From Chloroflexota bacterium (GTDB lineage: Bacteria; Chloroflexota; UBA11872): 64,000 nt of DNA. The notes under the pieces were generated by a model, which worked only from the letters and a program-made list of their open reading frames with translations, did not search any database and was not told the DNA's origin. Positions 5,445 to 64,000 of the stretch are shown in pieces. Each line of letters opens with the position of its first letter. Position 1 is the stretch's first letter. The stretch covers positions 59,528-123,527 of the forward strand of contig JAJDVX010000027.1 of NCBI GenBank assembly GCA_022825895.1, written 5' to 3'. A program made the translations under genes and the position numbers.

Positions 5445-5470
5445 ACACGCGGATCGGCCGCCGGCGGCTG

Positions 5471-31277: not shown

Positions 31278-32525
31278 CTAGGCTGGCGTCAGCACGCCGC
31301 GGTCGGCCAGCGTCTGCTCAAACGATGTGATGCTCGGTCGGATGTCATAGCGGGCGTCCACACGGCCGTCGATAGCCTCCTGCGTTTTGAGTCCGTTGCC
31401 GGTCACCAGCGCCACCGTCAGGTCGTCCCGAGCGATCACGCCGCGCTCCGCAAGCTTGGCCAATACCGCAATTGTCACGCCGCCCGCCGTCTCCGCAAAA
31501 ATGCCTTCGGTGGAAGCCAGCAGGCGCATGGCGTCCACGATCTCGTCGTCGGTGACGGCTTCGATCACGCCGTCCACTTCCTGTGCCAGCTTCAGCGAAT
31601 AGAACCCATCGGCCGGGTTGCCGATCGCCAGCGACTTGGCCACCGTGTCCGGCTGGCGAACCGGCCGGTACGTGGTCTGGCCGCGGGCGAACGCCTCGGC
31701 CACCGGCGCGCAGCCGTCCGCCTGGGCCCCGTGGATGCGGGTGGACTGGCTGTCCAGCAGCCCCACCTCCACCAACTCCTTCATCGCCTTGCCCATCTTC
31801 GTGTACAGCGAACCGGAGGCGATCGGCGCAACGATGTGGTCCGGCGCCACCCAGCCCAACTGTTCCACCGACTCGAAGGCCAGCGTCTTGGATCCTTCGG
31901 CGTAGTACGGCCGGATGTTGATGTTGCAAAAGGCCCAGTTGTAGAGGTCGGCGATTTCGCTGCACAGCCGGTTCAGTTCGTCGTAGGTGCCTTCCACCGC
32001 CACGATGCCCGCGCCATACACCGCCGCCCCGCGGATCTTGCCCACTTCAAGGTCGGCGGGCATGAATACGTAAGTGGGCATGCCGTGACGCGCCCCGGCG
32101 GCCGACACGGCCCCGGCCAGGTTGCCGGTGGACGCGCAGGCGAAGGTCTCGAACCCGAACTCGCGGGCCTTGGTGATCGCCACCGCCACCACCCGGTCCT
32201 TGAAGGAGTACGTGGGGTTTACGGTGTCGTTCTTGATGTGCAGGTTGGTCAGGCCCAGCCGTTCGCCCAGGTTGTCGGCGCGTTGCAGCGGCGTGAACCC
32301 GACCGGCCATGTCTCGTCCCAGCCCCCCTCCACCGGCAGCAACTCGTGGTAGCGCCACAGCGTGGGCGGCCGGCTGGCGATGGCATCGCGCGAGATGGTC
32401 TCGCGGATGGCCGCGTAGTCGAACTGCGCTTCCAGCGGCCCGAAGTCGAACTCGCAGATGTGCGTGGCTTGCAGCGGATACGCACGGCTGCACTCGCGAC
32501 AGCGAAGCGTCTGAGTCGTGGACAT
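31278..32525 (-). CDS. Threonine-synthase-family PLP enzyme with N-terminal Zn-ribbon (ThrC-like; possibly a carrier-dependent homocysteine synthase)
   Basis: 415 aa. LRCRECSRAY...HICEF is a Cys4-type ribbon. PLP-lysine motif YSFKDRVVA. Fold-type II Gly-rich loop. Confidence 0.75.
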   Translation of the reverse strand: MSTTQTLRCRECSRAYPLQATHICEFDFGPLEAQFDYAAIRETISRDAIASRPPTLWRYHELLPVEGGWDETWPVGFTPLQRADNLGERLGLTNLHIKNDTVNPTYSFKDRVVAVAITKAREFGFETFACASTGNLAGAVSAAGARHGMPTYVFMPADLEVGKIRGAAVYGAGIVAVEGTYDELNRLCSEIADLYNWAFCNINIRPYYAEGSKTLAFESVEQLGWVAPDHIVAPIASGSLYTKMGKAMKELVEVGLLDSQSTRIHGAQADGCAPVAEAFARGQTTYRPVRQPDTVAKSLAIGNPADGFYSLKLAQEVDGVIEAVTDDEIVDAMRLLASTEGIFAETAGGVTIAVLAKLAERGVIARDDLTVALVTGNGLKTQEAIDGRVDARYDIRPSITSFEQTLADRGVLTPA

Positions 32526-33228
32526 GCGGATGATCCTTGGCAGAGGCGCCGACGAAGATGTCAGCGGATGGCGAAGTCCCGAATCGCCGGGTAACCCGGC
32601 TCGCCCGCGTCACGCGCGGGCCCGGCCATCGCCATCGGCCGCTGAGCAGCGTGGGAGAGTTTGCCTCTCACTCCGTCGCAAACCCCTTGGCGCTCCGCGC
32701 CCCGCCCGGGGCGCTGCCTCGCGCCGGTGACCCTCGCATCTCGCAGCTTCCGCTACCGGAATTGGCACCCTCTCGAGCATTCGCTCGAAGGTTGCCCGGC
32801 TTCGTTGGGCCGACTCCCTCCACCAATCTTGATACGAGGTGTGTCACGTCAACCTTGGTGTTCGCGCATCCTAGCACCCGAAACGGCGTCCAGGCGGACG
32901 GCATGGGCCCGTCGAGCGGGAAAAACGCCTCGGACACCCCTCCCAGACGTGCTACGATGGGCGACTGCCTGAAAAGGCATCCGCGCAGTTCGGCGGCGCT
33001 TGATTCATCAGCCGCCCCGGTGGCGCACCGGCCATTATCAGCCGGTCGCGGGCGCGACGGCACCTTAACAGGGGAAGAGTGAGTGCGAGTACTCGCGTCA
33101 TTCCAATGTGTCTGGCGCGACAGTAATCCACGTGATTCGAGGATGACTCGGTGGCTCAGGGCTCCGGTACACCCGGCGCTCTGAAGTAATTGCGATCTGT
33201 ATCACGCCCGCCAGGGCGTGTGTTGAGA

Positions 33229-34752
<1,524 letters not shown>

Positions 34753-34974: not shown

Positions 34975-35330
34975 TGTGCCACCATGTACGGGAGCGTCGG
35001 GCCGGTCAGGCGGCCGCTCCGGCTCACGCCGGAGAGGAAAGTCCGCACTTCACAGAGCGCGGTAGCGGGTAACACCCGTCGCCCGAATCGGCTTACGCCG
35101 GCAAGGGCCGGAACAGGGGCACAGTGACGATGCCCGCGCTCCCACCTCGGGAGCGCGGGAGTGAAACGGCTAACCTCTACCGGAAGCAAGGCCAAGTCGG
35201 GACGCCACCAGGCTGCTCGCCCAGTCCCAGGTAGGCTGCACGAGGCCGGCGGCAACGCCGGTCCCAGATAGATGGCCGCCCACGACAGAATGCGGCTTAT
35301 CGACCGGTCCGACGCTCACCGGTCATCGGG
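34975..35330 (+). ncRNA. rnpB: RNase P RNA (bacterial type A); boundaries approximate
   Basis: P4 5' strand GGAGAGGAAAGTCCGC and 3' strand ACAGAATGCGGCTTATCG (compensatory CCGC/GCGG). GGGTAACACCC and GTGAAACGGC conserved regions are present. P2 pairs GAGCGTCGG (34991-) with CCGACGCTC (-35317). I did not resolve P1. Confidence 0.8.
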
Positions 35331-35440: not shown

Positions 35441-35515
<75 letters not shown>

Positions 35516-36357: not shown

Positions 36358-37347
36358 CTAGGTCGCTGCCGTTAACTCAACTGGATAAATCGGCGTGTCT
36401 TTACCGTAGTGCAATCGCAGCGCCCAGTCCCAGATGCTGAAGTACGGCACCGGCGTCAGCGTCTCGCTGGCCAGCGATCCGGATATCGCCTTTCCGCTCA
36501 ACCCGTCCCAGCGGCTGCCGGTTTCCCGGTCGATGAGGTCGGTTCCGTCGGCGTGGAAGGTGAGGCGACGTCCGTCGACCCGCGCTTGGTAGGTGCGCAC
36601 CAGCCGGCTCTCGGCGTCCGCAAAGGCCACCACCGGCGTGTTGCCAACCACCGCCTGCTGTACGCCGAGTCGCGCCGTCTCGTCGAAGTAGAACCCGGCC
36701 CCCGCGCCTTCGATGTCGACTCCGATGACCCAGATGTCTCTGGGCTGGCTCTGAATGTGAAAGGCGCTGTTGGGCGCGCCAACGGACAGGCGCTGCTTCA
36801 GGACGAGCGTGGTCGGATGCTGCTCGAGCCAGGAGCCCCAGGGCGTCAGTGAAGCGACAATCGGCCTGAGCCGCGCGCCGTCGAGTGGGCCGTCCAGCGC
36901 CTCGCCGAATACCTGGCTCCAGATGCTGCCGGTCTCGTGGTCCCACCAGGTCTGGGCGCCCTTGTAGAGCGCGCCTTGCACGCCCAGGGTCAGGGTTTGC
37001 CCCTCCCACACCCGTTCAAAGACCAGCCCGCTGTAGCACAGCGGGCACCAGGTAATCGCCACCGGCACGCCGCCCACCACGTCGTTCACGATCTCGTAGC
37101 TCACCAGCGGCTCGATGGGATAGGCGCGGGCGTCGCCGTTGATCTCCACCGCCAGCACCATCTCGTGCGGCTTCAGGCTGATGTTGTCAGGCGTGGTCAG
37201 ACTCGGGTTGTAGATCGGCTGGATGGCGTCCCGCAATATCCGCACGTCCCAGCGCAACTCGTACGCCGTCGACCGCTGCGGCAGGAACAGCAGCGCTCCA
37301 ATCACCGCTGCCATGGCCAGTACGCCAAGCACATGCTGTCGTCTCAT
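36358..37347 (-). CDS. DUF3179 family protein (paralog 3; signal-anchored)
   Basis: 329 aa. Shares VAITWCPLCYSGLVF...TWWDHETGS with the two paralogs at 3975-6769. N-terminal hydrophobic anchor. Confidence 0.65.
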   Translation of the reverse strand: MRRQHVLGVLAMAAVIGALLFLPQRSTAYELRWDVRILRDAIQPIYNPSLTTPDNISLKPHEMVLAVEINGDARAYPIEPLVSYEIVNDVVGGVPVAITWCPLCYSGLVFERVWEGQTLTLGVQGALYKGAQTWWDHETGSIWSQVFGEALDGPLDGARLRPIVASLTPWGSWLEQHPTTLVLKQRLSVGAPNSAFHIQSQPRDIWVIGVDIEGAGAGFYFDETARLGVQQAVVGNTPVVAFADAESRLVRTYQARVDGRRLTFHADGTDLIDRETGSRWDGLSGKAISGSLASETLTPVPYFSIWDWALRLHYGKDTPIYPVELTAAT

Positions 37348-50321: not shown

Positions 50322-51476
50322 ATGCTGCAGGAATCGATGCCTCAGTGGGATATCCATTTCAATGTCCGGGTTCGCGCCGGAGATCCGCGGCTGGTGCGGG
50401 CGGTCGAGCGCTCGCGCGCCATCGCCGAGACGATTCGCGGCATTCCGGTCACCGCTGGCGTGCGAAGGCGTCTCAACGCGCTCAACCTCGCGCGCGCCGT
50501 GCGGGGCACGACTGCCATCGAGGGCACGCGCATCTCCGAGGACGAGGCGCTGGCGGTGCTGGCGGCGGCCCCGGACCGGCCAGTGCTACCGACCAGCCGG
50601 GCGCGCGATGAGCGTGAAGCCCGCAACGCCCGAGCCGCATTGGAGTTCGTACAGCGGACCGTGAGGACCGATCTGGGGCGGCCGCTCGACGAAGCGCTGA
50701 TCAGGGAAATCCACCGACTGACGACGGACGGCCTCCGCTACCCGGGAAACGTGCCGGGCGAGTACCGCAGCCATGCCGTGACCGTCGGGAACTACCGCCC
50801 GCCGGCTACCGGCGAGGAAGTCCGCCGCCTGATGGCCGAGTTCGTACGCTGGTTCAACCAGGGTGAGGCGCTGCACTGGGACCCCATCGCCCGTGCGGCG
50901 CTCGCCCACTTTTGCGTCGTGAGCATCCACCCGTTCGGCGATGGCAACGGGCGCACCTCGCGCGCGGTCGAGAGCTTCATGCTTTGCCGTGCCGGTATCC
51001 ACGCCTTCGGCTTCTACTCGCTGGCCAACTTCTACTACGAGCACCACCACGAATACATTGACGCGCTGACGGCGGCGATGTTTCAGTCCGGCGGCGACCT
51101 GACGAACTTCGTGCTGTTCGCCGTGGAGGGACTGGCGGACGAACTGGCGACGGTCCGCAGCGAACTGTTGGCGAAGGTTCGCGTTTTGGCGTTCCGCGAC
51201 TATGCGCAGGAACGGCTCGAAGCGGTTCCCCGACTTGGCCAGCAACGGCGGGCACGAATGCTGGACCTCATCCGGCGACTGACGGAGCAGTCGCTGCGCG
51301 GCGTGCCTGACCACCAGATGGCGACCGACGTATTGGTGGCCCTGGCGTATGGACGGACCGGTCGGCGCACGGTGCAGCGTGACCTGCGCCTGCTGCTCGA
51401 TCAGCAATTGCTGATCGAGCGCGACGGCCATCTGGTCCCCAATGTCGAGCTCATGTCCGAACTCGCTGAGGCATAG
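50322..51476 (+). CDS. fic: Fic family protein (Fic/DOC AMPylator-type) with N-terminal inhibitory-helix motif
   Basis: Core motif HPFGDGNGRTSR. TAIEG fits (S/T)xxxE(G/N). C-terminal wHTH-like region. Confidence 0.8.
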   Translation: MLQESMPQWDIHFNVRVRAGDPRLVRAVERSRAIAETIRGIPVTAGVRRRLNALNLARAVRGTTAIEGTRISEDEALAVLAAAPDRPVLPTSRARDEREARNARAALEFVQRTVRTDLGRPLDEALIREIHRLTTDGLRYPGNVPGEYRSHAVTVGNYRPPATGEEVRRLMAEFVRWFNQGEALHWDPIARAALAHFCVVSIHPFGDGNGRTSRAVESFMLCRAGIHAFGFYSLANFYYEHHHEYIDALTAAMFQSGGDLTNFVLFAVEGLADELATVRSELLAKVRVLAFRDYAQERLEAVPRLGQQRRARMLDLIRRLTEQSLRGVPDHQMATDVLVALAYGRTGRRTVQRDLRLLLDQQLLIERDGHLVPNVELMSELAEA

Positions 51477-52836: not shown

Positions 52837-52944
52837 GCGGCGTCATTGTCGTGTGGAGGTCAGCTTCGATTGTACGGAGCGCCGGCGGCGGGCCAGGGCG
52901 CGGTTAAGTTTCGTAGCATAGGCAGCGTCGGACTTCGGTCCGTG

Positions 52945-53021
52945 TGGGGCATTCGTCTAGCGGCCTAGGACACCGCCCTCTCAAGGCGGAGATCGCGGGT
53001 TCGAATCCCGCATGCCCTACC
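52945..53021 (+). tRNA. tRNA-Glu (anticodon CTC)
   Basis: GGGGCATTCGTCTAGCGGCCTAGGACACCGCCCTCTCAAGGCGGAGATCGCGGGTTCGAATCCCGCATGCCCTACCA. Closely matches the tRNA-Glu architecture, anticodon loop CTCTCAA. CCA is encoded. Confidence 0.85.
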
Positions 53022-53254
53022 AGTTCATCGCTGCGGGTTGCGGGGACTCGAACTCCTCGGCCGCGGCCTACGGCTGCGCCTGCCGAGGGCAGTGGCGGCT
53101 CTCGTCGGGCTCAGCTCGCGACCTGTCCAGGTCCGGGGCTTTCCCACCAGTTGGGCCACACGGGGCCAGCCTAGAGATCAACGAGTCAGACGTGGAGTGA
53201 CAGGAGCCGTATCGCCTCCACGACTTGCGAGGGGCGCCAATTGGGACTACGACG

Positions 53255-53656
53255 TCACTCCTCGGCGTACCCCATGATCAGGTCGCGCAGAGTCACCCTG
53301 CCGAGTGGATTGCGCTGCCGGTCGACTACCACGGCACGTGAGCGCTCAAAGCGTACGAGCAGGCGGACCGCGTACTTGGCGAGCATGTCATCCGGCACAG
53401 TCAACAGCGGTTTGGACATGATCTCGTAGACGTTAACTCGCTTTGGGGCACGGTTGTTCGCGATCACTTCGCGCGCGATGTCACCGACCGTTATTACTCC
53501 CAACTCGTCGTCACTGTTACGTCGATTGACAACGAGATAGTCGACCTGGTGCCGCTTCATCAACGCCATCGCCTGGGTCACGGTCGCGAGCCCGTCAATA
53601 GTGTGCATCTCCGTGACCATGAGATCCCTTACACGTATGGAGATATCCTCGGTCAT
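53255..53656 (-). CDS. CBS-pair domain protein
   Basis: 133 aa with two CBS repeats (VTEMHTIDGLATVTQAMALMKRHQVDYLVV; IMSKPLLTVPDDMLAKYAVRLLVRFERSRAVVV). Confidence 0.7.
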   Translation of the reverse strand: MTEDISIRVRDLMVTEMHTIDGLATVTQAMALMKRHQVDYLVVNRRNSDDELGVITVGDIAREVIANNRAPKRVNVYEIMSKPLLTVPDDMLAKYAVRLLVRFERSRAVVVDRQRNPLGRVTLRDLIMGYAEE

Positions 53657-54003
53657 ATCTCGGGTTCCACCTCCTCCAGGATCGTGGGTAACTGCGTCGC
53701 CAGGCCCACAGCATCCTCAATCGGCATCTGGAAGGCAATCCCGGCGCCCGGTTCGGTGTCAAGACCTCCTGCATCGCGGATCCGCTCCAGGATTTCGCGC
53801 GCCCGCGTATCGGCTACCAGGAACAGCGCGACGTCGCGCTTGGCTGAAAGGTCAAGGCCGAAGAACGTCTTTTCGGGCCTGAGGCCGCCGCCCCGTACGC
53901 TGGTAATGACCGTGTCGCCGGTTGCGCCGGCTGACCGCGCCGCGTCCACGACTACGTCAGTCTTGTCGTCGCTCACCAGGGCGACAATTAACTTCAGCTT
54001 CAC
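53653..54003 (-). CDS. P-II-like (nitrogen-regulatory-protein fold) protein
   Basis: 116 aa. MKLKLIVALVSDDKTDVVVDAARSAGATGDTV...RGGG fits the ferredoxin-like PII fold. Overlaps the CBS gene start. Confidence 0.55.
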   Translation of the reverse strand: MKLKLIVALVSDDKTDVVVDAARSAGATGDTVITSVRGGGLRPEKTFFGLDLSAKRDVALFLVADTRAREILERIRDAGGLDTEPGAGIAFQMPIEDAVGLATQLPTILEEVEPEI

Positions 54004-54006
54004 GGC

Positions 54007-54795
54007 TCAAGCCTCCTCACGAAATTTCGACATTCGCCTGCGGCTCAGCCAGGACGCCACCATAGCGTATCCCAGCACGGACATGATTGGGAAGACGCTG
54101 GCGAAAGCGATGAGTCCAAATCCATCTATCAGCGGGCTTCGACCAGGGACACTCGAGGCAAGACCCAGCCCGAGGGCGGCAACCACAGGCACGGTGACGG
54201 TCGATGTGGTGACGCCGCCGGAGTCGTAGGCAAGCGGGACGATTGTCTTGCTGGACCGGAACGTCTGGAGTATCACGACGACGTAGGCCGCAATGATGTA
54301 CCAGGGCAAGGGTGTGCCGGTGACAATGCGAAAGCAGCCCAGCGCCACGCCCACAGCCACGCCGATGGCCACGGCTATCCTCAATCCCCAGGCGTTAACC
54401 GCGCCGCCTGACACCTCGCGGGCCTTCAGCGCCACCGCAACGAGCGAGGGCTCGGCCACTGTCGTCGCGAAGCCGATCGCGGCGGCAAATGCGTAGATCG
54501 GCAGGTAGTCCTGCCAGTCCACCCCGTCGCTCAAGCTCTCCGCCCCTATGGTCGCTGACGCGGTGAGTTGCCGCGCCATGGTGTTGCCTATCGGAAACAG
54601 CGCATTCTCCAGACCTATGAGAAACAGGCTAAGTCCCAGCAGTACCAAGATGGAACCGGTTGCTATCTGCCGCAGGTTGGCCGGCTTGCGGCGCAGAACT
54701 ACGACCTGGAACAGAACGAGGATCACGACGATGGGCGCAACGTCGAGAACCGTTGACAGCATCGCGTCGGCGAAGGCGCGCGGGAAGTCGCTCAT
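54007..54795 (-). CDS. DUF1538-family membrane protein
   Basis: 262 aa polytopic, with a conserved [14 protein letters not shown]-type segment. This family typically neighbours PII-like and CBS genes. Confidence 0.55.
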
Positions 54796-55517
54796 GACGC
54801 CACCATCCCGTAGCCGAGCACGCCGACCATGGGGGTCAGGCTGGCGAACGCTATGAGACCGAATCCATCGACCATCGGGTTTCGTCCTCGGATGGTCGTG
54901 GCCAGCCCAACGCCCAGCGCCGTCACGAGCGGCACCGTGACGGTGCTGGTGGTCACGCCGCCTGAGTCGTAGGCCACGCCGACGATCTCGGCGGGTGCGA
55001 AGAACGTCATGGTCGCGACCATCAGATATCCGCCGATAATCAACCTGTGTATCGGCCAGCCCTTCAGGATGCGCAGGACACCCACCAGGAGCGCCACTCC
55101 CACCGATACGGCAACGACCATCCGAAGCTGGAAGGCATAGGAGTCGCGCGCCTGATCGTCATCGATGATGGCGCCGGCTTCGGCGGCAACGTCGGCGGCC
55201 TCGGCGGCTACGGCGATCAGGGCGGGTTCGGCCACGGTCGTACCGAAGCCCAGGCAGAAGGCGAAGACAAGCACGGCAGCTGCGCTGCCCTTTTGGCCGA
55301 AGCTCTGAGCGATCCCCTCCCCAAGGGGGAAGAGACCGCTTTGCAGTCCCTGTATGAAGAGCGTCAACCCGGCGATGACACAGAGCAACCCCACGACGAC
55401 GCCCAGCAGGTCGGGAAAGGGTTGCCGCAACACCACGATCTGGAAGAACGCGATCACGACGATGATGGGAGCCAAGTCGCGCAGTGCGCCGACCATCAGT
55501 GCAGCGAAACGGGTCAC
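54792..55517 (-). CDS. DUF1538-family membrane protein (paralog)
   Basis: 241 aa, paralogous to the previous gene ([17 protein letters not shown]). 4 nt overlap. Confidence 0.55.
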
Positions 55518-56065
55518 GCCTTTTGAGCGCTCCTTGGGATTCGTGAGGAACCGATGGGGTCGATAAGCGGCACCATGGGGCCGGTCAAGATGTCCGGCCG
55601 GGCCAACGAATAGTCAAGCCTTCCGACAGGAGGGACGCTTGCGGCAAGGGTAGCACGACATGACTTGCAGGGGAAAATCCCATCGTAAAGTTCGCAGTTC
55701 AGGGCAAGCTATACTGGCAGAAAGATTCACTGTGCCCCTTCGCGCTGATGGAACATGCGCTAGAGGAATGCGCAAATGAAAGCCTTCATACGCGATCGTT
55801 GAATGGCAATCGATAAGGGCCATCGCTTCCAGGATTTGGATTGGGGTGCACGGAGCACTAGCGAAGAGATATTCAACAGAATACGTCACTGTACTTTTCT
55901 GAAACGATTTAGGTTACGATGGCCCCAACCTTCACAGATCATGACGTGTTGAAAGCGAAACTGTCCAAGGGTCTGCAGCCAGAGCCAACTTAGGACTTGG
56001 GATGCGGCTCGGGCGCCAACGCCGTATGGTTGGCAGGTGACTTCGGTGGCCGAGCATATCTCCCG

Positions 56066-56105
56066 GTCAAGGCGAAGATCGCCTGTTCGAATTCGGTCGT
56101 GACCG
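56066..56105 (+). other. Degenerate partial copy of the tRNA-Glu 3' half (tRNA-like remnant)
   Basis: GTCAAGGCGAAGATCGCCTGTTCGAAT matches the anticodon-stem to T-loop part of the tRNA-Glu at 52945-53021 at 23 of 27 positions. The acceptor and T-stem 3' side have diverged. Confidence 0.35.
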
Positions 56106-56695
56106 CCGGCTTCCACTTTCCCTTGCATCACATTTGGAAGGGCCGACTCCTACTAATGCAAATGGCGCAGCAAGGCTCCCGGCCAACCAAGAGGCGTGGC
56201 TCTCGTCCCGGTGCGCCGCACTTTTTTGGTGGACCGCCGTCGCCGGCGTGCGCGACAACGCGGAACTCATAGCCCGTGTCCGAGGTCTTCGCGGCCGAGT
56301 CTCACCAGGAATGCCGAACACTGCCCTCTCCCCTGACGGGGAAAGTCTGGCCCCTCACCGGATGAGAGGGCGCAGACAAGGACGCCTGCGCCCTTTCCGT
56401 CAACCGAATCCGCGAGGAGACCTCCCACCGGAAGGTTCGCAGTAAAGCCCCCATGGCCTACCTAAGACAGCCTGCGATTGCTCGCACCCGTGTTTTCGCG
56501 GGTCAGAGCCGCAGTTTGCAGCCAGCAGAGGCGAACGGAATTCGGGCGGGCAGATTCCGTGAGTTGTCGATCGGGGAATCGGAAAGCCAGTTGCGACCGT
56601 CGTTCGGGCATTTCCGGCGCACCCCGTCAACACGAGGTTCTTCTGATACGCTCGACCGAAGCACGCGTGATAGAGGCCAGTCCTAGATCAGTTCG

Positions 56696-57721
56696 ATGTC
56701 CGTCAAGCTTTCCGATGTTCTGAAGGACGCGGATAAATCTTCCGGAGTCGATTCCTCCCTCAGCGAATACAAAGCGCACTTCAGGAACGCCGAGCGCGGT
56801 GAATCGGACGACGAGAAGAGCGAGCACCAGACGGTCAACAATCTCTACTACGACCTGGTTACCGACTTTTTCGAGTACGGATGGGGCAAGTCGTTTCACT
56901 TTGCCCCGCGGGTCCCTGGCGAGAGCTTCAAGGCTTCGCTGGCGCGCCACGAGCACTACATGGCGCACACCCTGGGGCTCAGGCCCGGGATGGTGGTGGC
57001 CGACATCGGGTGTGGCGTGGGCGGACCGCTCATGGAGATTGCCCGGTTTTCCGGCGCAAAGATCGTTGGCGTCAACAGCAATGCCTATCAGCTCGAACGC
57101 GCCCGGAAACTGACACGCGAGGCGAAGCTAGCGGACCTTGCGGACTTTATTCACTGCGACTTTCTGAGTGTTGAGGCTCCGGATGAATCGTTCGACGCGG
57201 CCTACTCCATCGAGGCATCGTGCTGTGCACCGGACAAAGTCAGCATCTACCGCGAGATTTACCGGCTGCTAAAGCCTGGCGCCTGCTTTGGCGCGTATGA
57301 GTACTGCATGACTGAGCGATTCGACGCAAGCAATCCCCACCACCTCAGGATTAAGGCCGACATTCAGTTGGGCGGTGGGCTGCTCATCATCGACGACTAC
57401 CAGACCGTGGATGACGCGCTTCGAACCGTTGGCTTCGAAGTGTTGGAGACACGGGATCTGACGCTGCAGGCAGGTCCGTCAATCCCCTGGTATCAGCCGC
57501 TGGCCGGCTCGGGTATCTCGTTCGCCAGCTTTCGCAGTTCGCGGATCGGGCGCTCGGTGACGCACGGCACGCTGCGAGTGCTCGAAGCGCTGCGCATCGT
57601 GCCGCAGGGATCGGTTCGCGTGGCGGACACCCTGAATCTCTGCGCGGCAGCCATGGCCGAGGCGGGCCGGCTGGAGATCTTTACGCCGATGTATTTCGTC
57701 CACGCCCGAAAGCCCGCGTAG
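56696..57721 (+). CDS. Sterol 24-C-methyltransferase (ERG6/SMT)-like SAM-dependent methyltransferase
   Basis: 341 aa. YYDLVTDFFEYGWGKSFHFAP is SMT region I (YEYGWGxSFHF). SAM motif I VADIGCGVGGP. Post-I IVGVNSN. GC ~56% versus ~70% genome background. Confidence 0.7.
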   Translation: MSVKLSDVLKDADKSSGVDSSLSEYKAHFRNAERGESDDEKSEHQTVNNLYYDLVTDFFEYGWGKSFHFAPRVPGESFKASLARHEHYMAHTLGLRPGMVVADIGCGVGGPLMEIARFSGAKIVGVNSNAYQLERARKLTREAKLADLADFIHCDFLSVEAPDESFDAAYSIEASCCAPDKVSIYREIYRLLKPGACFGAYEYCMTERFDASNPHHLRIKADIQLGGGLLIIDDYQTVDDALRTVGFEVLETRDLTLQAGPSIPWYQPLAGSGISFASFRSSRIGRSVTHGTLRVLEALRIVPQGSVRVADTLNLCAAAMAEAGRLEIFTPMYFVHARKPA

Positions 57722-57778: not shown

Positions 57779-58273
57779 CTACGTCTGTCCCGGGTCGAAG
57801 TTGACGCAGGCTTCGCAGACCGATTGCGGGATCAGGCCCCAGCGCATCAGGTAGTTGAAGACGAAGCAGCCGGCGCAGAAGCCGAGGAATGACTCGAGCG
57901 CGGCGAAGACGGTGAGCATGGCCAGGACGGCGCCGGCCGCCAGCGAGAGTCCCGCGACGAAGTGAAGTGCGAGGGCCGTGAGCGAGCAGGCAAGTCCGAC
58001 CGTTTGCGCGAAGCGCTTGGGCGGCCCCGGCACGAGCTTCGGTTGTGCTATTCGCGGTGCGATCAGCCTGGTCGACAACTGGCCCATCGGGCTCAGCGTA
58101 GGTCCGGTGGCGACGCGGGCCAGGAATCCGTAGGCGAGAAGGAATGCCAGCCACCACTGGCCGGTCAGCAATATCGCAAGAGACAGGACCACGACCATGC
58201 CGGCCACGACTCGAGCCGCAACTTCATTGACCGGATTGGGGAAGCTGAAGACTTGGCGAAGCCGGGAAGACAT
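57779..58273 (-). CDS. DUF4395-like membrane protein with C-terminal Cys cluster
   Basis: 164 aa. MSSRLRQVFSFPNPVNEVAARVVAG... with 3-4 TM segments. C-terminus FLGFCAGCFVFNYL...SVCEAC. Confidence 0.5.
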   Translation of the reverse strand: MSSRLRQVFSFPNPVNEVAARVVAGMVVVLSLAILLTGQWWLAFLLAYGFLARVATGPTLSPMGQLSTRLIAPRIAQPKLVPGPPKRFAQTVGLACSLTALALHFVAGLSLAAGAVLAMLTVFAALESFLGFCAGCFVFNYLMRWGLIPQSVCEACVNFDPGQT

Positions 58274-58290
58274 CGATCAACGCTCGCTGA

Positions 58291-60672
58291 CTAGGGCTTG
58301 CTAAGGCGCACCCAGATGGGTGAGGCGTAGGCCACGGCGGGGGTCGACTGTGGAAGCGCCGGCTGCGCCGCCACGCGCACGTAGTAGTAGTTGCGGGTGC
58401 GCGGGTTGCCGCGGTCGGTCCAGGTCCAGTCCAGGGTGGGGGCGTCCAGGGACTCGCAGTGGGCCAGCCTGCCGTTGCGGTAGACCTCAATCTCGCGGAG
58501 CGGTTGGGCAGACTCGGCTACGACCCGAAGCTGAGGGTCGCCCGAGACCTCGCCTTCGGCGCCCATCGGGATCCCGGACACCTCGGTGTGCAGCAGGATC
58601 TTGGCTGAGGCGGCGATGGTTCGCCGCTTCCAGATGGCGTCGAAGATGGCCTCGCGGGTCGGTTCGGTGGCCCAGACGCCGGTCATGCAGTAGGCGAAGT
58701 GCCAGTGGCGGGCGTGGTCGCTTGCGCCCAGAAACCCGATCTTGGCGCCTTCGAGAAGAAAGGTCTCGATCCACTCGCGCTGGTCGCCGCGCGTCTGGAT
58801 GATCTCCATGGACGGCTCCCAGGCGGCCCGGTAGCCCTCGAAGACGTCGGGCTGCCGGTGGCCCTGGAAGTGGCGGGCGGCCAGCACTTCGCCGGCGGGC
58901 ATGCGGGCGTCCCAGCGCTCCATCAGGTCTTCGAGGCTGGGCGACATCAGGGTAAGGGCGCGTAGTTCCTCACCGAGCTGCTGGTCGCGGTAGAAGATAT
59001 TGGTGTGGCCGGGGTTGTTGCCCCATTCGAAGCCGAACAGCGGCTCAAAACGCCCGTCGCTGGTGAAGGCGGCCACGGTTTCCTCGACTCGCCGCCACTC
59101 GTTGTAGCTCATGTATTCCAAGTGCTCGGTCAGCGCCCACCAGTCCATGCGGTTGTGGTCGACGGCCCAGCGGAAGTGCTGCAGCGGCGTCCCGTCGTTG
59201 GGCGACATGCACTTGGAAAGGTGCGAGTGCCGGTGCATATCGCCCCAGAGGAGCTGGTAGGTCCGGTCGCCGACGGTGACGGTGCGGCCGTCGCGGCGAG
59301 ACTGCGGGGTGTCCCTGCGATCGCCTTCGTAGCGCGCGGATTCCACCCGCAGCGGCGGATCCTCGGCCGGAGGCGGTGGGTCGACTGTCAGAATCTCGAT
59401 GCGCTCGCGGGAAACGGGGGCGCTCCCGGCGCGCAGTTTCGGCAGGCCGGCCGACGCGCGCTCAACCGTCTGCATGGGGATGTAGCCGGTGGCGTTGTGC
59501 GCGACTATGCGCCGCTCATCCGGCAGCGCCGCCACGCCGTATCGGGTGTCCGGCATGCCCTGGAACTGACTGACGGTCTCCGGTTCGGACCACGACGATC
59601 CGGCGTAAACGATGCGGTCGAGTTGCCAGCCGAAGTCTTTCTGGTGCCGGCTGCGGAAGCGTCGGAAATACAGCTCAATGCCGTTACGCCCCACGACCAG
59701 GCGCGGCGAGACGGGGACGATGTACTCGGCGCAGATGCTCTGCATGAAGCTCTCGATTGGGATCGGGGCCTGACCGGCGCCCCACGGGCTTTGGGCCAGG
59801 GAGACCTCGCCGCGGGCGTCAATCGCGGCCAGGACGAGATGCCGGGTCTTGTTGAAACGGTGATCCTCGCCCCAGGCCGGCGATTGCTCCCAGGTCACCC
59901 AGGCCGTGTCGTCCGCATCCACCGCGATGTCGGCGTCCATGGCCAGCATCGGCAGGTCGCTGACCTGAATCGCCGCGCCGAGCGTTCCGTCGGGAGCGAT
60001 GCGCCGGGCGAAGACATGGAAGTGGTGCCCGATCCAGGCGTCCCAGGCCAGCCACAGGCCCTGGCCGTTTGAAGCGCGAAGGACCGGCTGCCAGGCCGAA
60101 TGGCCGGCAACGGACGCCACTGCCGGCTGCGTCCAACCATCCGACTCCCGGCGGCTCACGACGACCACGCAGACGTCACCGTCAAAGGCCTGCCAGGCGA
60201 CCCAGGGCTGGCCGTCGCTGTCGATCGCCGCGGCCGGACGGGTCAGGGAGGCGGGCGTTGAGGCCACGGTTTCGACTTCGGCGCCGGTCCAGGCCCGCAC
60301 GACGAAGCGGTCGTCAATGCGCTCACCCCAGGCCACGAGGCGCCGATCGCCATGTGCGGCCACGGCGGGATCCTGGATCGCGGTACGGCTTTCCGTGAGC
60401 AGGACCGGATCCAGGTCCTCTCCGGCCACTTGGCCCGCGTAGACCCGGAAGCGACCCTTGCCCAGGCGCGCCATGAAGTCGCGCTCGTCATACCCCGGCG
60501 CGAACTGCCAGTGCCCGCCCGGGTGAGAGGTACGCAGACCGAAGAGCGACTCTTCGGCCCAATCACTCCCGGCCCAGGCGCCAAAGGCGCCGCCGTCGGG
60601 GTCGGGCGCCACGTCGCAGGCGTAGGCGCCCTGCAGAACCGTGGGCGGTTCCGGCCTGGTTTCCGTCGCCAT
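58291..60672 (-). CDS. Large DUF3604/PHP-like putative metal-dependent hydrolase (paralog A)
   Basis: 793 aa. N-terminal region with repeated W/D-rich beta-strand units. C-terminal YQLLWGDMHRHSHLSKC...ALTEHLEY resembles PHP/DUF3604 metal-binding motifs. The DUF assignment is from memory. Confidence 0.45.
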   Translation of the reverse strand: MATETRPEPPTVLQGAYACDVAPDPDGGAFGAWAGSDWAEESLFGLRTSHPGGHWQFAPGYDERDFMARLGKGRFRVYAGQVAGEDLDPVLLTESRTAIQDPAVAAHGDRRLVAWGERIDDRFVVRAWTGAEVETVASTPASLTRPAAAIDSDGQPWVAWQAFDGDVCVVVVSRRESDGWTQPAVASVAGHSAWQPVLRASNGQGLWLAWDAWIGHHFHVFARRIAPDGTLGAAIQVSDLPMLAMDADIAVDADDTAWVTWEQSPAWGEDHRFNKTRHLVLAAIDARGEVSLAQSPWGAGQAPIPIESFMQSICAEYIVPVSPRLVVGRNGIELYFRRFRSRHQKDFGWQLDRIVYAGSSWSEPETVSQFQGMPDTRYGVAALPDERRIVAHNATGYIPMQTVERASAGLPKLRAGSAPVSRERIEILTVDPPPPAEDPPLRVESARYEGDRRDTPQSRRDGRTVTVGDRTYQLLWGDMHRHSHLSKCMSPNDGTPLQHFRWAVDHNRMDWWALTEHLEYMSYNEWRRVEETVAAFTSDGRFEPLFGFEWGNNPGHTNIFYRDQQLGEELRALTLMSPSLEDLMERWDARMPAGEVLAARHFQGHRQPDVFEGYRAAWEPSMEIIQTRGDQREWIETFLLEGAKIGFLGASDHARHWHFAYCMTGVWATEPTREAIFDAIWKRRTIAASAKILLHTEVSGIPMGAEGEVSGDPQLRVVAESAQPLREIEVYRNGRLAHCESLDAPTLDWTWTDRGNPRTRNYYYVRVAAQPALPQSTPAVAYASPIWVRLSKP

Positions 60673-60780
60673 CGCGCCTTCTCCCTGGCGCCGACCGGCG
60701 CTGGAGGATCGCCGCTGTCAGCCTAGCGCGTAGGACTCTTCAGGACATTCGGTGTGGAAGGACGCGGGTTAGGCTTGGCG

Positions 60781-61749
60781 ATGAGCAGACTGGAACTACG
60801 CCCCCTTGGGCGTACCGGCGACCAGGTGACCACCCTCAGCCTGGGGGGCTGCGGGCTGCCGCGCGTGTCGTTCGCCGAGGGCGTGGCGACGGTACAGCGG
60901 GCGCTGGAACTCGGGGTCAATTGCTTCGACACTGCGCCGTCGTATAGCAGCGGGTTGTCGCAGGCGATTCTCGGCGTCGCCCTGGAGGGGCGGCCGGAGC
61001 CGCACCTGGTCTCGACCAAGGTGGGCAACCTGGCGCAGCGCAGCCGCTTTCGCTCGCCTGACGCCCTGCACGCGCAGCTCGAAGAAAACCTGCGGCTTCT
61101 ACGGCGCGACTGCGCGGACATCGTCCTGATTCACGAGGCCGACCATCACTACTGGTGGACGGACGAGCCGAGCGACGACCTATTCGTGGACCTGGAATCC
61201 GAGCCCGACGTGGCCAACGCGCCGGTGATGCAGGTGCTACAAGAGGCCCGGGCTGCGGGCCGCTGCCGTTACGTCGGCATCAGCGGCAACAGTCCGGACC
61301 ACCTGGCGCACGTTTTGCGCGCGGCGGGCGACGCCGAAGTGGATGTTTGCCTGAGCGCCCTGGCCTACGGCCTGATCGACCGCGGCATCCGTCACCAACT
61401 ACTGCCCGTGGCCAGTGAGCGCGGTACCGCGATTGCGTTGGGCGGAGTCTTCCGTCGTGGTCGCCTCGCGGCGATCCGCCCGGAGAGTCTTCAGACACCG
61501 CCAATCTGGTCGAGCGAGATGACGCCTGAAGAACAACAACGGGTCCCGCGTCTCGTCGAGTTGCAACAGGAGAGCCAACTGTCGCTGGTCACGCTGACGC
61601 TCCGCTACCTGGTGGCAGACCGAAGCATCGCCACCATCCTGGTCGGAGCGGCAACGCCGGCCGAAATCGAGGAAAGCGTGGCGGCCGTTGAGGCCGGACC
61701 GTTGCCGACCGACTTGCACCAGGCCGTGGAGGCCCTAGGCCTGCCCTGA
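60781..61749 (+). CDS. Aldo/keto reductase
   Basis: The ATG at 60781 gives MSRLELRPLGRTGDQVTTLSLGG. FDTAPSYS. AKR catalytic tetrad context. Confidence 0.8.
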   Translation: MSRLELRPLGRTGDQVTTLSLGGCGLPRVSFAEGVATVQRALELGVNCFDTAPSYSSGLSQAILGVALEGRPEPHLVSTKVGNLAQRSRFRSPDALHAQLEENLRLLRRDCADIVLIHEADHHYWWTDEPSDDLFVDLESEPDVANAPVMQVLQEARAAGRCRYVGISGNSPDHLAHVLRAAGDAEVDVCLSALAYGLIDRGIRHQLLPVASERGTAIALGGVFRRGRLAAIRPESLQTPPIWSSEMTPEEQQRVPRLVELQQESQLSLVTLTLRYLVADRSIATILVGAATPAEIEESVAAVEAGPLPTDLHQAVEALGLP

Positions 61750-61772: not shown

Positions 61773-62159
61773 CTAGCGCGCCTCGTCGTGGGTTTCGAAT
61801 TCGGCGGGCATGGTGATCTCTAGGACCTGCCAGTCGTCGGAGTACTCCAGCACCTCATGTCTGACCCCCGGCGCCTGGTACCAGGCGTCGCCCGCCTCGA
61901 CCCGGATCTCGCCGATGTCTTCGAAATAGAGCCGCGCCCAGCCGCTGATGAGGTAGACCATCTGGAAGTCAAGATCGTGCGAGTGGTAGCCCATGGGGCC
62001 GTCACAGGGCTGTTCGGCGCGAATGATGTGCGCCAGCACCTTGCCCTCGGTCGCGTCCTTGATTCCCAGGTCGCGGTAGGCGAAGTAGGGCCGCAGGTCC
62101 TTGCCCCAGCGGGCGTCCCTGGCGTGGGCTGCGAATGACCCGGTCGTCTTCTCGGTCAT
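61773..62159 (-). CDS. Cupin-domain protein
   Basis: 128 aa. G(X)5HXH-like motif MGYHSHDLDFQMVYLISGW plus a second motif PGVRHEV. Confidence 0.6.
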   Translation of the reverse strand: MTEKTTGSFAAHARDARWGKDLRPYFAYRDLGIKDATEGKVLAHIIRAEQPCDGPMGYHSHDLDFQMVYLISGWARLYFEDIGEIRVEAGDAWYQAPGVRHEVLEYSDDWQVLEITMPAEFETHDEAR

Positions 62160-62272: not shown

Positions 62273-64000
62273 CTAGGACTCGCTGGCGTTCACCCACACC
62301 GGCGAGGCGTAGGCCACGGCGGGGGTGGCGAGCGGATGGACGGTCTCGGCCGTGAGCTTGACGTAGTAGTAGTTCTGGCTGCGGGGGTTGCCGCGGTCGG
62401 TCCAGGTCCAGTCCAGGCTGGACCCGTCCACGGACTCCCGGTGAACTGGCGCGCCGTTGCGGAAGACCTGGATTTCACGCAGGCGCTGCGCGGACTCGGC
62501 CATTACTCGCAGCCTGGGATCTCCTGAGACCTCGCCCTCGCCGCCCATCGGAATCCCGGACACCTCGGTGTGCACAAGAATCTTTGCGGACGTGGCGATG
62601 GTGCGGCGGTTCCAGATGGCGTCGAAGATCGCCTCGCGCGTCGGCTCGGTGGCCCAGACGCCGGTCATGCAGAAGGCGAAGTGCCAATAGCGCGCGTGGT
62701 CGGTGGCGCCGATGAAGCCGATGCGGGCGCCTTCGCGCAGAAAGGTCTCGATCCATTCCCGCTGGTCGCCGCGGGCCTGCATGATCTCCATGGCGGGCTC
62801 CCAGGTGGGACGGAAGCCCTCGAACACGTCCGGCTGCCGGTGGCCGTGGTAGTGACGGGCCGCCATGACCGCGCCGGCCGGCATGCGGGAATCCCAGCGT
62901 TCCATCAGGTCCTCGAGGCTGGGTGACATCAGCGTCAGCGCGCGCAGCTCTTCGCCCAGCTGCTGGTCGCGGTAGAAGATGTTGGTGTGACCGGGATTGA
63001 GGCCCCACTCGAAGCCGAAGAGCGGCTCGAAGCGGCCGTCGTTGGTGAAGGCGGCGACTGTTTCCTCAACCCGCCGCCACTCGTTGTAGCTCAGGTATTC
63101 CAGGTGCTCGGTGAGCGCCCAGAAGTCCATGCGGTTGTGGTCGATCGCCCAGCGGAAGTTGTGCACGGGCGACCCGTCGTTGGCGGCAATGCACTTGGAG
63201 AGGTGCGAATGCCGGTGCATGTCGCCCCAGTAGAGGTGGTAGGTCTGGTCGCCCACGGTGATGGTGCGGCCGTCGCGGTGCACCAGTGGCGAATCGTCGC
63301 GCAGACCCTCGTAGCGGACGAAGTCGACCTTGAGCGGCGGCTCGATGGCGGCGGCCGGGGGATCCAGGGTCAGGACTTCGATGCGCTCCCGATCCACGGG
63401 CCCGGCGCCCCCGCACAGGAACGGCAGGCCCGCCTGCCATCGGTCCAGCGTCTGCATGGGCGCGAAGCCCATGGCGTTGTGCGCCACCACGCGCCGCTCG
63501 TCCGGCAGCGCGGCCACGCCGTAGCGCGTGTCGGGCGTGCCGTGGAAGGGGCTGACCGTCTCCGGGTCGGACCAGGTGGCGCCGGAATAGACCATGCGTT
63601 CCAGCCGCCAGCCGAAGTCCACGTAATCCGAGCTGCGGAAGCGTTGGAAGAACAGCTCGATGCCGCGAGGTCCCGCGATCAGGCGCGGTGAGACGGGCAC
63701 GATGTACTCGGCCGACTGGACGTGCGTAAAGGTCTCGATGGGAATCGGGGCCTGGCCGGCGCCCCAATGGCTATTGGCCAGAAAGGTGGTCCCACGGTGG
63801 TCGACCGCGGCCAGCACGACCTGGCGCGTCTCGTTGAACCGATGGTTCGAGCCCCAGGGCGGCGACTGCTCCCAGGCCAGCCACGCCGTGTCGTCCGCGT
63901 CCACCGCGACATCCACGTCCATGGCCAGCAGCGGCAGGTCGCTGACCTGCACCGCCGGGCCGTGTGCGCCGTCCGGCGTGATACGGCGCGCGAATACGTG
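62273..64000 (-). CDS. Large DUF3604/PHP-like putative hydrolase (paralog B); 5' end beyond window
   Basis: Co-linear with the middle-to-C-terminus of paralog A (YHLYWGDMHRHSHLSKC...TEHLEYLSYNEWRRVEETVAAFT...). The first ATG in the window (63952) aligns to around residue 235 of paralog A, so the gene continues past 64000. Confidence 0.45.
   Translation of the reverse strand, partial: HVFARRITPDGAHGPAVQVSDLPLLAMDVDVAVDADDTAWLAWEQSPPWGSNHRFNETRQVVLAAVDHRGTTFLANSHWGAGQAPIPIETFTHVQSAEYIVPVSPRLIAGPRGIELFFQRFRSSDYVDFGWRLERMVYSGATWSDPETVSPFHGTPDTRYGVAALPDERRVVAHNAMGFAPMQTLDRWQAGLPFLCGGAGPVDRERIEVLTLDPPAAAIEPPLKVDFVRYEGLRDDSPLVHRDGRTITVGDQTYHLYWGDMHRHSHLSKCIAANDGSPVHNFRWAIDHNRMDFWALTEHLEYLSYNEWRRVEETVAAFTNDGRFEPLFGFEWGLNPGHTNIFYRDQQLGEELRALTLMSPSLEDLMERWDSRMPAGAVMAARHYHGHRQPDVFEGFRPTWEPAMEIMQARGDQREWIETFLREGARIGFIGATDHARYWHFAFCMTGVWATEPTREAIFDAIWNRRTIATSAKILVHTEVSGIPMGGEGEVSGDPRLRVMAESAQRLREIQVFRNGAPVHRESVDGSSLDWTWTDRGNPRSQNYYYVKLTAETVHPLATPAVAYASPVWVNASES

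Follow-up and report, generated by a model that had tools for sequence, protein, structure and literature searches.

The window analyzed here, a 64,000-nt stretch of a Chloroflexota genome, holds at 56696-57721 an intact gene for a sterol C-24 methyltransferase (SMT), a member of the S-adenosylmethionine (SAM)-dependent ERG6 family. Between the start of a DUF1538 gene on the minus strand (55517) and the SMT start lie 1178 nt, and both this stretch and the SMT gene had been singled out in an earlier note on this DNA. An Ircinia metagenome scaffold (ENA KELL22-1_SAMN22237331_METAG-scaffold_72) matches the window exactly, as does an independent Logan contig. Judging from the sample names, the window probably derives from the data set of Kelly et al. 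(2022, PMC9531527). The closest named metagenome-assembled genome (MAG) is jk18x40bins.16, entered in Table S1 of Kelly et al. (2022, PMC9531527) as a Chloroflexota_B member of class UBA11872 from Ircinia strobilina, 89% complete and with a GC content of 65.6%. A eukaryotic or contaminant origin of the window is excluded because it contains a bacterial 16S rRNA, RNase P RNA, three tRNAs, recA, pheST, and ffh.

Examination of related genomes, whose loci carry L numbers below, revealed that the SMT gene is part of a shared backbone consisting of ffh, tRNA-Glu(CTC), SMT, DUF4395, and DUF3604. The synteny of the right-hand part is kept in L001, L006-L011, L086, and L089. The features of the locus are collected in Table 1.

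Table 1 Features of the tRNA-Glu/SMT locus, with positions in the window (ORF, open reading frame)
Feature	Position	Strand	Evidence
tRNA-Glu (anticodon CTC), left edge of variable segment	52946-53022	+	ARAGORN; Rfam tRNA, 64.1 bits
Segment absent from L087, 3.55 kb	53024-56570	.	blastn comparison with L087
Cargo operon: CBS-domain protein (53255-53656), P-II-like protein (53653-54003), two DUF1538 membrane proteins (54007-54795, 54792-55517)	53255-55517	-	Pfam
Non-coding relic, ~1.05 kb, distal part of insertion	55518-56570	.	No coding signature; frame-breaking indels versus L005
24-nt motif CCTCCCAnCnnnArGTTCGCAGTA, copy 1, degenerate	55676-55699	+	Absent from 100 shuffles
Decayed ORF-like frame, M..TFTDHDVL..GLQPE..DLGCGSG.NAVWLAG..	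55919-56158	+	In-frame TAG at 55991-55993; resemblance to SAM-methyltransferase motif I only
tRNA-Glu-derived fragment, tRNA positions 17-61	56048-56092	+	blastn 35/45, E 1.6e-4
Short hairpin GGTGCG/CGCACT followed by six T	56210-56228	+	Pattern scan at chance level
9-bp GC-rich hairpin AGGGCGCAG/CTGCGCCCT	56367-56394	.	Within best-conserved relic block, 56320-56475
24-nt motif CCTCCCAnCnnnArGTTCGCAGTA, copy 2	56421-56444	+	Absent from 100 shuffles
True SMT leader	56571-56695	+	Alignments of 8-10 loci; L087 homology resumes at 56571
Sterol C-24 methyltransferase (SMT/ERG6 family), intact, 341 aa	56696-57721	+	Pfam, residue set, third-position bias
Right-hand backbone: DUF4395 (57779-58273) and DUF3604-like (58291-60672), convergent with SMT	57779-60672	-	Pfam

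The SMT gene and its product

When the protein was searched against Pfam, residues 276-340 spanned positions 1-65 of the 66 in the Sterol_MT_C profile (PF08498; E 4e-23, 81.7 bits against a cut-off of 21.7), and Methyltransf_11 (1.1e-17) marked a class I SAM-methyltransferase core. The earlier note had described a protein of the eukaryotic SMT type carrying FEYGWGKSFHF and SAM motifs, and the domain, motif, and residue tests all agree with that description. FEYGWGKSFHF occupies residues 59-69 of the translation and corresponds to the sterol-binding Region I, (Y/F)E(Y/F)GWGxxFHF. Region II, DxGxGxxGP, reads DIGCGVGGP at residues 103-111, with D103, G105, G107, G110, and P111 corresponding to yeast positions 125-133.

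The list of residues conserved in functional SMTs was taken from the Brown & Welander 2025 preprint and mapped onto the protein by way of yeast ERG6 and Chl_SMT, the enzyme of a Chlamydiae drinking-water MAG, which was read from locus L067. The ERG6 sequence used agreed with the preprint at all 28 numbered positions that were compared. All 25 of the conserved residues were found: Y52, T56, G62-W63-G64, F67-H68-F69, D103..P111, G125, Q132, D167, E173, G195, G246, W265, G305, L313, G324, F329, and P331. With ERG6, to which it is ~41% identical over 340 aligned residues, the protein shares Regions I-IV and the C-terminal domain. It differs from ERG6, which adds one carbon only, in a shorter N-terminus, the lack of a C-terminal tail, and two exchanges, F for Y81 and G for D249. 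In yeast numbering, position 81 is thus Phe (F59), position 83 Tyr (Y61), and position 249 Gly (G227), the last of which aligns with G211 of Chl_SMT. Chl_SMT is ~44% identical to the window protein and likewise has Gly249, but has Y81/F83 where the window SMT has F81/Y83, and its locus holds two tandem SMTs rather than one.

The search of NCBIfam returned no specific SMT model, only generic methyltransferases far below their cut-offs, and the PDB sequence search returned no true SMT structure, its best matches being generic methyltransferases at <=75 bits. These non-SMT structures and NCBIfam models scored at most 75 bits and covered the methyltransferase core only, compared with 566-726 bits for the listed SMT homologues. 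Most nucleotide differences from relatives are third-position changes (24/12/98 mismatches by codon position against L001 and 23/11/109 against L005), which indicates that the gene is under purifying selection. By every sequence criterion applied, the protein is a member of the SMT family, and it would be expected to have the corresponding enzymatic activity.

A protein search with the SMT gave 3345 proteins at E <= 0.001, the best 120 of which were 71-92% identical, scored 566-726 bits, and all had PF08498. A few of these 120, from Bryobacterales or Chloroflexota MAGs, are named 'sterol 24-C-methyltransferase family protein'. In species-representative genomes we counted 72 SMT loci, the closest belonging to Chloroflexota MAGs from sponges (89-93% identity), followed by Dehalococcoidia (65-78%), Alphaproteobacteria (~60%), Acidimicrobiia (~55%), and Myxococcota (~46%). 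With such numbers, the view that bacterial SMT homologues are rare does not hold in the sponge habitat.

SMTs of sponge symbionts form a family known from earlier work (Kelly et al. 2022, PMC9531527; Brown et al. 2023, PMC10070321), and the window SMT is one of them. Among MAGs of Ircinia symbionts, an enrichment of SMT1/ERG6 has been reported (Kelly et al. 2022, PMC9531527). Sponge-symbiont SMTs methylate desmosterol in vitro, and besides methylating sterols they ethylate them and, in three cases, propylate them (Brown et al. 2023, PMC10070321). The window protein resembles them in its pairing of Methyltransf_11 with Sterol_MT_C, in the conserved residue set, and in its demosponge-microbiome habitat, here Ircinia; with the propylating enzymes it shares the Region I Phe and Gly249. 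It differs in being solitary and outside a sterol gene cluster, in a host class (UBA11872) that is not among the cluster-bearing ones, and in being known here from sequence alone; no correspondence with any of the assayed sequences could be established. What the locus adds is modest, namely the apparent orphan status of an SMT in UBA11872, the Phe81/Gly249 signature, the insertion hotspot, an SMT allele swap, and a recurrent 24-nt intergenic motif.

The allele swap became apparent on comparison with L001, which comes from a different Ircinia sample. The two sequences are 99.7% identical over 51.9-56.7 kb and 57.71-58.31 kb, but inside the SMT ORF 134 of 1026 nt differ (28 aa, 13%), with breakpoints at its two ends, the diverged segment running from 56716 to 57689 in the window and from 10021 to 10994 in L001. 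The L001 allele is 94% identical to that of L005, whereas the closer relatives of the window allele are in the L006-L011 group (89-90%), and both forms were reproduced in independent assemblies. The pattern is best read as a replacement of the SMT allele by homologous recombination between sister strains. A second, small diverged patch separates the window from L001 at 56013-56201, and divergence reaches 10-25% in the DUF3604 gene (58321-60656).

The tRNA-Glu/SMT spacer

In L087, a contig from Petrosia ficiformis, the distance from tRNA-Glu to the SMT start is 233 nt, and blastn of this spacer against the window gave matches at 52839-53023 and 56571-56721 only. Because homology stops at 53023 and resumes at 56571, the segment 53024-56570 is an insertion relative to L087, and it begins exactly at the 3' end of tRNA-Glu. 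Its cargo consists of the four-gene operon listed in Table 1, the genes of which have 58-64.5% GC, below the 66.5% of the window. The operon and the non-coding tail that follows it are also present in L001, L005, and L089. At the same site L007 and L008 carry ~7 kb of other cargo, comprising a peptide-type ABC transporter (in L008, SBP_bac_5 and two permeases), a WD40 protein, and CobW.

No integrase was found by Pfam among the four cargo genes, and no integrase or transposase remnant gave a Pfam or PHROG match in any frame of 55518-56695. A plasmid search with 55518-56695 was likewise without a match. The GC-rich ~230 nt at 53023-53254, which separate tRNA-Glu from the CBS gene end, carry on the minus strand tRNA-like strings (GCCCCGTGTGGCCCAACTGG…GAGTTCGAGTCCCC); ARAGORN called no tRNA from them, and Rfam at E <= 1 gave the true tRNA-Glu and weak overlapping matches only.

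The earlier note had seen no credible ORF in ~1.1 kb upstream of the SMT gene, and this was confirmed. The 1178-nt gap contains 15 ORFs of >=40 aa, and none shows the pattern of this genome's genes, which is high GC at third codon positions (GC3) and low GC at second positions; GC3 was 48-73% in the gap ORFs compared with 72-93% in likely genes. Against L005 the stretch is 86% identical overall, with frame-breaking indels, no codon periodicity, and mismatches distributed 45/38/58 by position. Identity is 93-94% at 55518-55650, by the DUF1538 start, falls to 75-77% at ~55651-55990, and is ~92% at 56561-56695, adjoining the SMT gene, so that the middle of the relic appears near-neutral and its end by the DUF1538 start conserved. 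By tblastx and blastn, homology to the relic was seen only in L001-L005 and L089, apart from a motif match of 52 nt in L009.

Six-frame stop-to-stop segments of the stretch, compared with Pfam and PHROGs, gave a single sub-threshold match, to TehB and at the level of motif I. The frame in question, 55919-56158, reads …GLQPEPT*DLGCGSGANAVWLAG…, like the start of a SAM methyltransferase with an in-frame stop, and its TehB E values of 0.034 and 0.0074 both lie under the curated cut-off. In L005 the frame has no stop but an upstream frameshift, and in L089 it is an 80-aa ORF. This L089 orthologue (P0121) was the sole real homologue when a 92-aa frame was searched against 1.84 billion representative proteins, the other four matches being repetitive junk proteins. 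Because the TehB match is sub-threshold, the only orthologue is that of L089, and the codon changes between the window and L005 are 3 synonymous and 17 non-synonymous, the frame is not a gene under selection; it is dead DNA, or was never a gene. A decayed tandem copy of the SMT gene was also considered for the stretch and rejected, as tblastn of the SMT found a match at the level of motif I only and nothing collinear.

The tRNA-Glu-like remnant that had been noticed at 56066-56105 is real and extends over 56048-56092. Its blastn-short core, 56067-56092, matches at 23/26 positions in the window (E 0.013) and at 24/26 in L005. Both acceptor ends are absent, no tRNA fold is present, and neither ARAGORN nor Rfam called the fragment, which is well conserved in L001, L005, and L089. 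The idea of a decayed mobile-element scar stands insofar as the stretch forms the far portion of a 3.5-kb insertion that abuts tRNA-Glu at its 3' end, and contains a tRNA-Glu fragment; an integrase or transposase remnant to go with it was not detected by the search described above. For this stretch, a scar is a better reading than a leader.

The 24-nt motif occurs in two direct copies in the window and in none of 100 shuffles. Judged by eye, the copies show no consistent pairing or spacing. The motif also lies upstream of SMTs in three other Chloroflexota lineages (L009 2204-2227; L028 9891-9914; L024 4208 and 8915) and in eight JGI sponge-metagenome contigs (L078-L085; Aplysina, LXNJ01, MKWU01). 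All copies lie between genes, those of two contigs 40-50 nt past the end of a same-strand ORF, and the motif may represent a binding site or an element of the REP type.

Two hairpins had been reported from the stretch. The GTGCG..CGCAC stem followed by TTTTTT at ~56210-56228 is present, but terminator-like sites are at chance level (3 in the consensus scan, compared with 2.7 +/- 1.7 in shuffles), and L005 and L089 retain neither the stem nor the T-run intact; the hairpin is lineage-specific and probably non-functional. Promoters sought in the stretch by the consensus scan were likewise at chance level, and both kinds of signal were dropped as candidates. The 9-bp perfect hairpin exists as well, at 56367-56394 rather than at ~56347-56375 as first given, and it is identical in L089 and has two arm substitutions in L005. 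When 16 windows were folded, z-scores ranged from -2.37 to +1.04, the extreme value belonging to the minus strand of the 150-nt window 56268-56417. This one window of 16 is marginal and has no covariation support. Rfam searched with 55300-56900 on both strands at E <= 1 gave no match, and ARAGORN found no tRNA in the same stretch.

What relatives keep in front of the SMT gene is short. The last ~110-130 nt before the ATG are common to all lineages, with or without the relic, and since lineages without the relic share only this leader, the SMT gene does not need the 1-kb stretch. The proposal of a long non-coding leader holding a small RNA (sRNA) is not supported, given the lack of an Rfam match, fold statistics in which one window of 16 stands out, and the ~110-130 nt that relatives retain. 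Within the true leader, an invariant TGnTACGMT (extended -10-like) at 56644-56652, 43 nt before the SMT start, may be the SMT promoter element. A conserved RNA structure in this leader was rejected, the consensus being weak (-10 kcal/mol, with a covariation term of -0.45). Many Dehalococcoidia SMTs (L016, L017, L020, L021, L024, L027, L029, L032, L072) have a promoter-like TTGAC-N17/18-TAnnnT site 50-80 nt upstream, in contrast to the UBA11872-type clade with its extended -10-like TGnTACGMT only.

A functional non-coding RNA or cis element in the 1.18-kb stretch would be the strongest alternative, whether as an sRNA, as a long minus-strand DUF1538 leader, or as a structure in 56320-56475 together with motif copy 2. 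We consider it unlikely. Nowhere else in the relic is conservation across four lineages as high as in that block, the spacer varies little in length, the minus strand of 56268-56417 gave the z-score of -2.37, and the 24-nt motif recurs upstream of the SMTs in L009, L028, and L024. However, the motif is also found where no SMT is nearby, Rfam at E <= 1 had no match on either strand, and 15 of the 16 fold windows were unremarkable, so that a single z of -2.4 is marginal. No compensatory changes were seen, an arm-breaking change is present in L005, and SMT relatives manage without the whole stretch.

Sterol context and interpretation of the locus

None of the 38 window ORFs was identified by Pfam as a cyclase, CYP51, sterol reductase, squalene synthase, or epoxidase, and no Chloroflexota locus has a cyclase motif within 10 kb of its SMT; among relatives, a cyclase near the SMT was found in Myxococcota and Acidisphaera loci only. 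The ERG24-CYP51-LSS cluster (CSG) is listed for eleven classes by Kelly et al. (2022, PMC9531527), and UBA11872 is absent from the list. Four UBA11872 MAG rows of Table S1 of that paper, including that of jk18x40bins.16, are marked as without CSG. The SMT would thus appear to be an orphan. Brown et al. describe a similar case in Chl_SMT, which comes from a Chlamydiae MAG without other recognizable sterol genes and has been interpreted as modifying host-derived sterols. The window SMT may similarly act on sterols made by the host or by neighbors, a use suggested by the absence of sterol-ring genes from the window together with the absence of a reported CSG in class UBA11872.

Since the lineage seems to be without sterol synthesis, an SMT-family enzyme that does not act on sterols is the second alternative, one that would either methylate a different isoprenoid or triterpenoid, likewise with a double bond at its end, or have no activity. 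The window without sterol-ring genes among its 38 ORFs is consistent with such an enzyme, as are the UBA11872 MAG rows of Table S1, in which no CSG is reported. Yet all 25 functional-SMT residues are kept, including those of the sterol-binding Region I, and the gene is under strong purifying selection. Sponge tissue is, moreover, rich in delta-24 sterols, which also counts against this alternative. Finally, full in vitro activity on sterols has been reported for the Chlamydiae orphan SMT, whose MAG contains no further sterol genes (Brown et al. 2023, PMC10070321). A non-sterol enzyme or an inactive one therefore appears somewhat less likely still than a functional RNA in the spacer.

The locus is, in our estimation, probably a functional SMT gene set in the chromosomal backbone with a short leader of its own, the stretch upstream of it being the decaying tail of an insertion and not the SMT leader. 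The enzyme would carry out SAM-dependent methylation of the sterol side chain at C-24 in a sponge-associated Chloroflexota_B (UBA11872-type) bacterium, from a gene held in the conserved order ffh, tRNA-Glu, SMT, DUF4395, DUF3604 and transcribed from its own leader of ~125 nt. The tRNA-Glu/SMT spacer would serve as a hotspot whose cargo differs by lineage, here a 3.55-kb segment made up of the CBS/P-II/DUF1538 operon and ~1.05 kb of decaying non-coding DNA. This tail would also contain the dead ORF fragment and the divergent promoter region of the DUF1538 operon, and the tRNA-Glu fragment in it would plausibly be the far-end repeat of an old tRNA-targeted integration. The non-coding stretch is, in short, ordinary genome wear at a tRNA-linked hotspot.

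Several observations weigh against parts of this description. The tRNA-Glu fragment (17-61) lacks the 3' end that classical att repeats include, ~480 nt (56093-56570) separate it from the point where L087 homology resumes, and no integrase remnant was detected in 55518-56695 with Pfam or PHROG. The relic has a constant length (1178-1185 nt) and includes the well-conserved block 56320-56475, which could mean some function. The orphan status of the SMT rests on MAGs that are ~87-91% complete and on a cluster definition of three adjacent genes, so that a lone cyclase elsewhere in the genome is possible. In published assays, four SMT homologues with all conserved residues were inactive (Brown & Welander 2025 preprint).

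The same mixture of likeness and difference is met when the locus is compared with tRNA-linked genomic islands or flexible islets. As in these, the cargo starts at the 3' end of a tRNA and is lower in GC, a partial copy of the same tRNA lies ~3 kb away in the same orientation, and the site holds different cargo in sister lineages. Unlike them, the window has cargo without an integrase, a tRNA copy without a 3' acceptor end, and a far breakpoint ~480 nt past the tRNA fragment. Integration at tRNA-Glu may have been the mechanism, and homologous recombination between the conserved flanks would be an equally good one for cargo replacement.

As to the product of the enzyme, Gly249 together with a Region I Phe (81 and/or 83) is reportedly required, though not enough, for the formation of 24-isopropyl sterols, and of the assayed SMTs with both residues, three yielded C28/C29 sterols only and one was inactive (Brown & Welander 2025 preprint). 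The Phe81/Gly249 residues of the window SMT therefore do not predict C30 production. We put forward, as a tentative possibility, that the UBA11872 lineage, unable to make sterols, keeps a single, strongly conserved Phe81/Gly249 SMT to alkylate sterols of the host or community, possibly to 24-isopropyl forms, and that co-occurring strains exchange alleles by precise recombination. Such exchange, if true, would point to selection on the spectrum of sterol products, and sponge 'biomarker' sterols could then be under the influence of bacteria that go unseen when sterol gene clusters are searched for. The fossil record of early animals is traced in part through side-chain-alkylated steranes, notably 24-isopropylcholestane. 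SMTs from the bacterial symbionts of sponges complicate this fossil reading, a topic already active and published, and the present locus would be an example of a symbiont clade that has an SMT fixed in its core chromosome and no reported sterol-ring cluster. The window SMT is a reasonable candidate for enzyme assay, and it cautions that cluster-based surveys may undercount potential bacterial sterol modifiers.

Base composition, ancestry, and other features of the window

The SMT gene had been described as low in GC, at ~56% against ~70% for the genome. It is lower than its surroundings, but these figures were overstated, the measured values being 60.7% for the gene (GC3 77%) and 66.5% for the window. 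The gene lies near the 5th percentile of 1026-nt windows. The 1178 nt upstream have 58.4% GC, down to 52.7% at 55518-55999, and the low-GC block, first delimited as 55560-57721, is indeed low in GC but extends more widely, over ~53.1-57.7 kb.

The deficit is not peculiar to this genome. In all seven UBA11872-type loci with a measurable flank, the SMT gene is 5-8 GC points below its flanks, whereas in most Dehalococcoidia loci the SMT GC equals that of the flank. In a neighbor-joining tree rooted with ERG6 as outgroup, the UBA11872-type SMT clade is nested in a Dehalococcoidia-dominated group with some out-of-phylum members, and phyla are mixed in the tree, an Acidimicrobiia MAG within a Dehalococcoidia clade being one example. 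The earlier hint of horizontal transfer is supported by the clade-wide GC deficit and by this mixing of phyla. Because the deficit is common to the whole clade, any transfer predates its diversification, and an old transfer from a lower-GC Dehalococcoidia-like donor is plausible. A recent foreign acquisition, or a sponge or assembly contaminant, might be read from the 60.7% GC of the gene against 66.5% for the window and from the mixed phyla of the tree, but is very improbable and indeed refuted by the same backbone position in at least 10 related genomes from different sponges, by the GC deficit throughout the clade, by the bacterial 16S rRNA, RNase P RNA, tRNAs, ffh, and recA of the window, and by junctions reproduced in independent Logan assemblies. 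Ancient transfer is compatible with the preferred reading of a backbone SMT gene with its own leader.

Elsewhere in the window, a distance of 247 nt separates the 16S rRNA gene (33231-34751) from RNase P RNA (34998-35315), with tRNA-Met (35441-35515) coming next, and the presence of these three genes accounts for the low GC of a block at 33.4-36 kb. No 23S rRNA turned up in the window, and the rRNA arrangement is thus unlinked. A SAM riboswitch (70 bits) at 32733-32838 on the minus strand precedes a gene for a PLP-dependent enzyme (31278-32525, minus). To the right of the SMT gene, paralogous DUF3604-like genes at 58291-60672 and 62273-63952 (74-79% nucleotide identity) have between them an aldo-keto reductase (60754-61749) and a small ORF (61773-62159), for which Pfam gave a weak Cupin_2 match in the identical locus L003. 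The DUF3604/aldo-keto reductase arrangement is kept in relatives. The 64-kb window also contains three genes of the DUF3179 family (3975-6769 and 36358-37347), and Fic-domain genes were found at 50322-51476 and, beyond the window, in L003.

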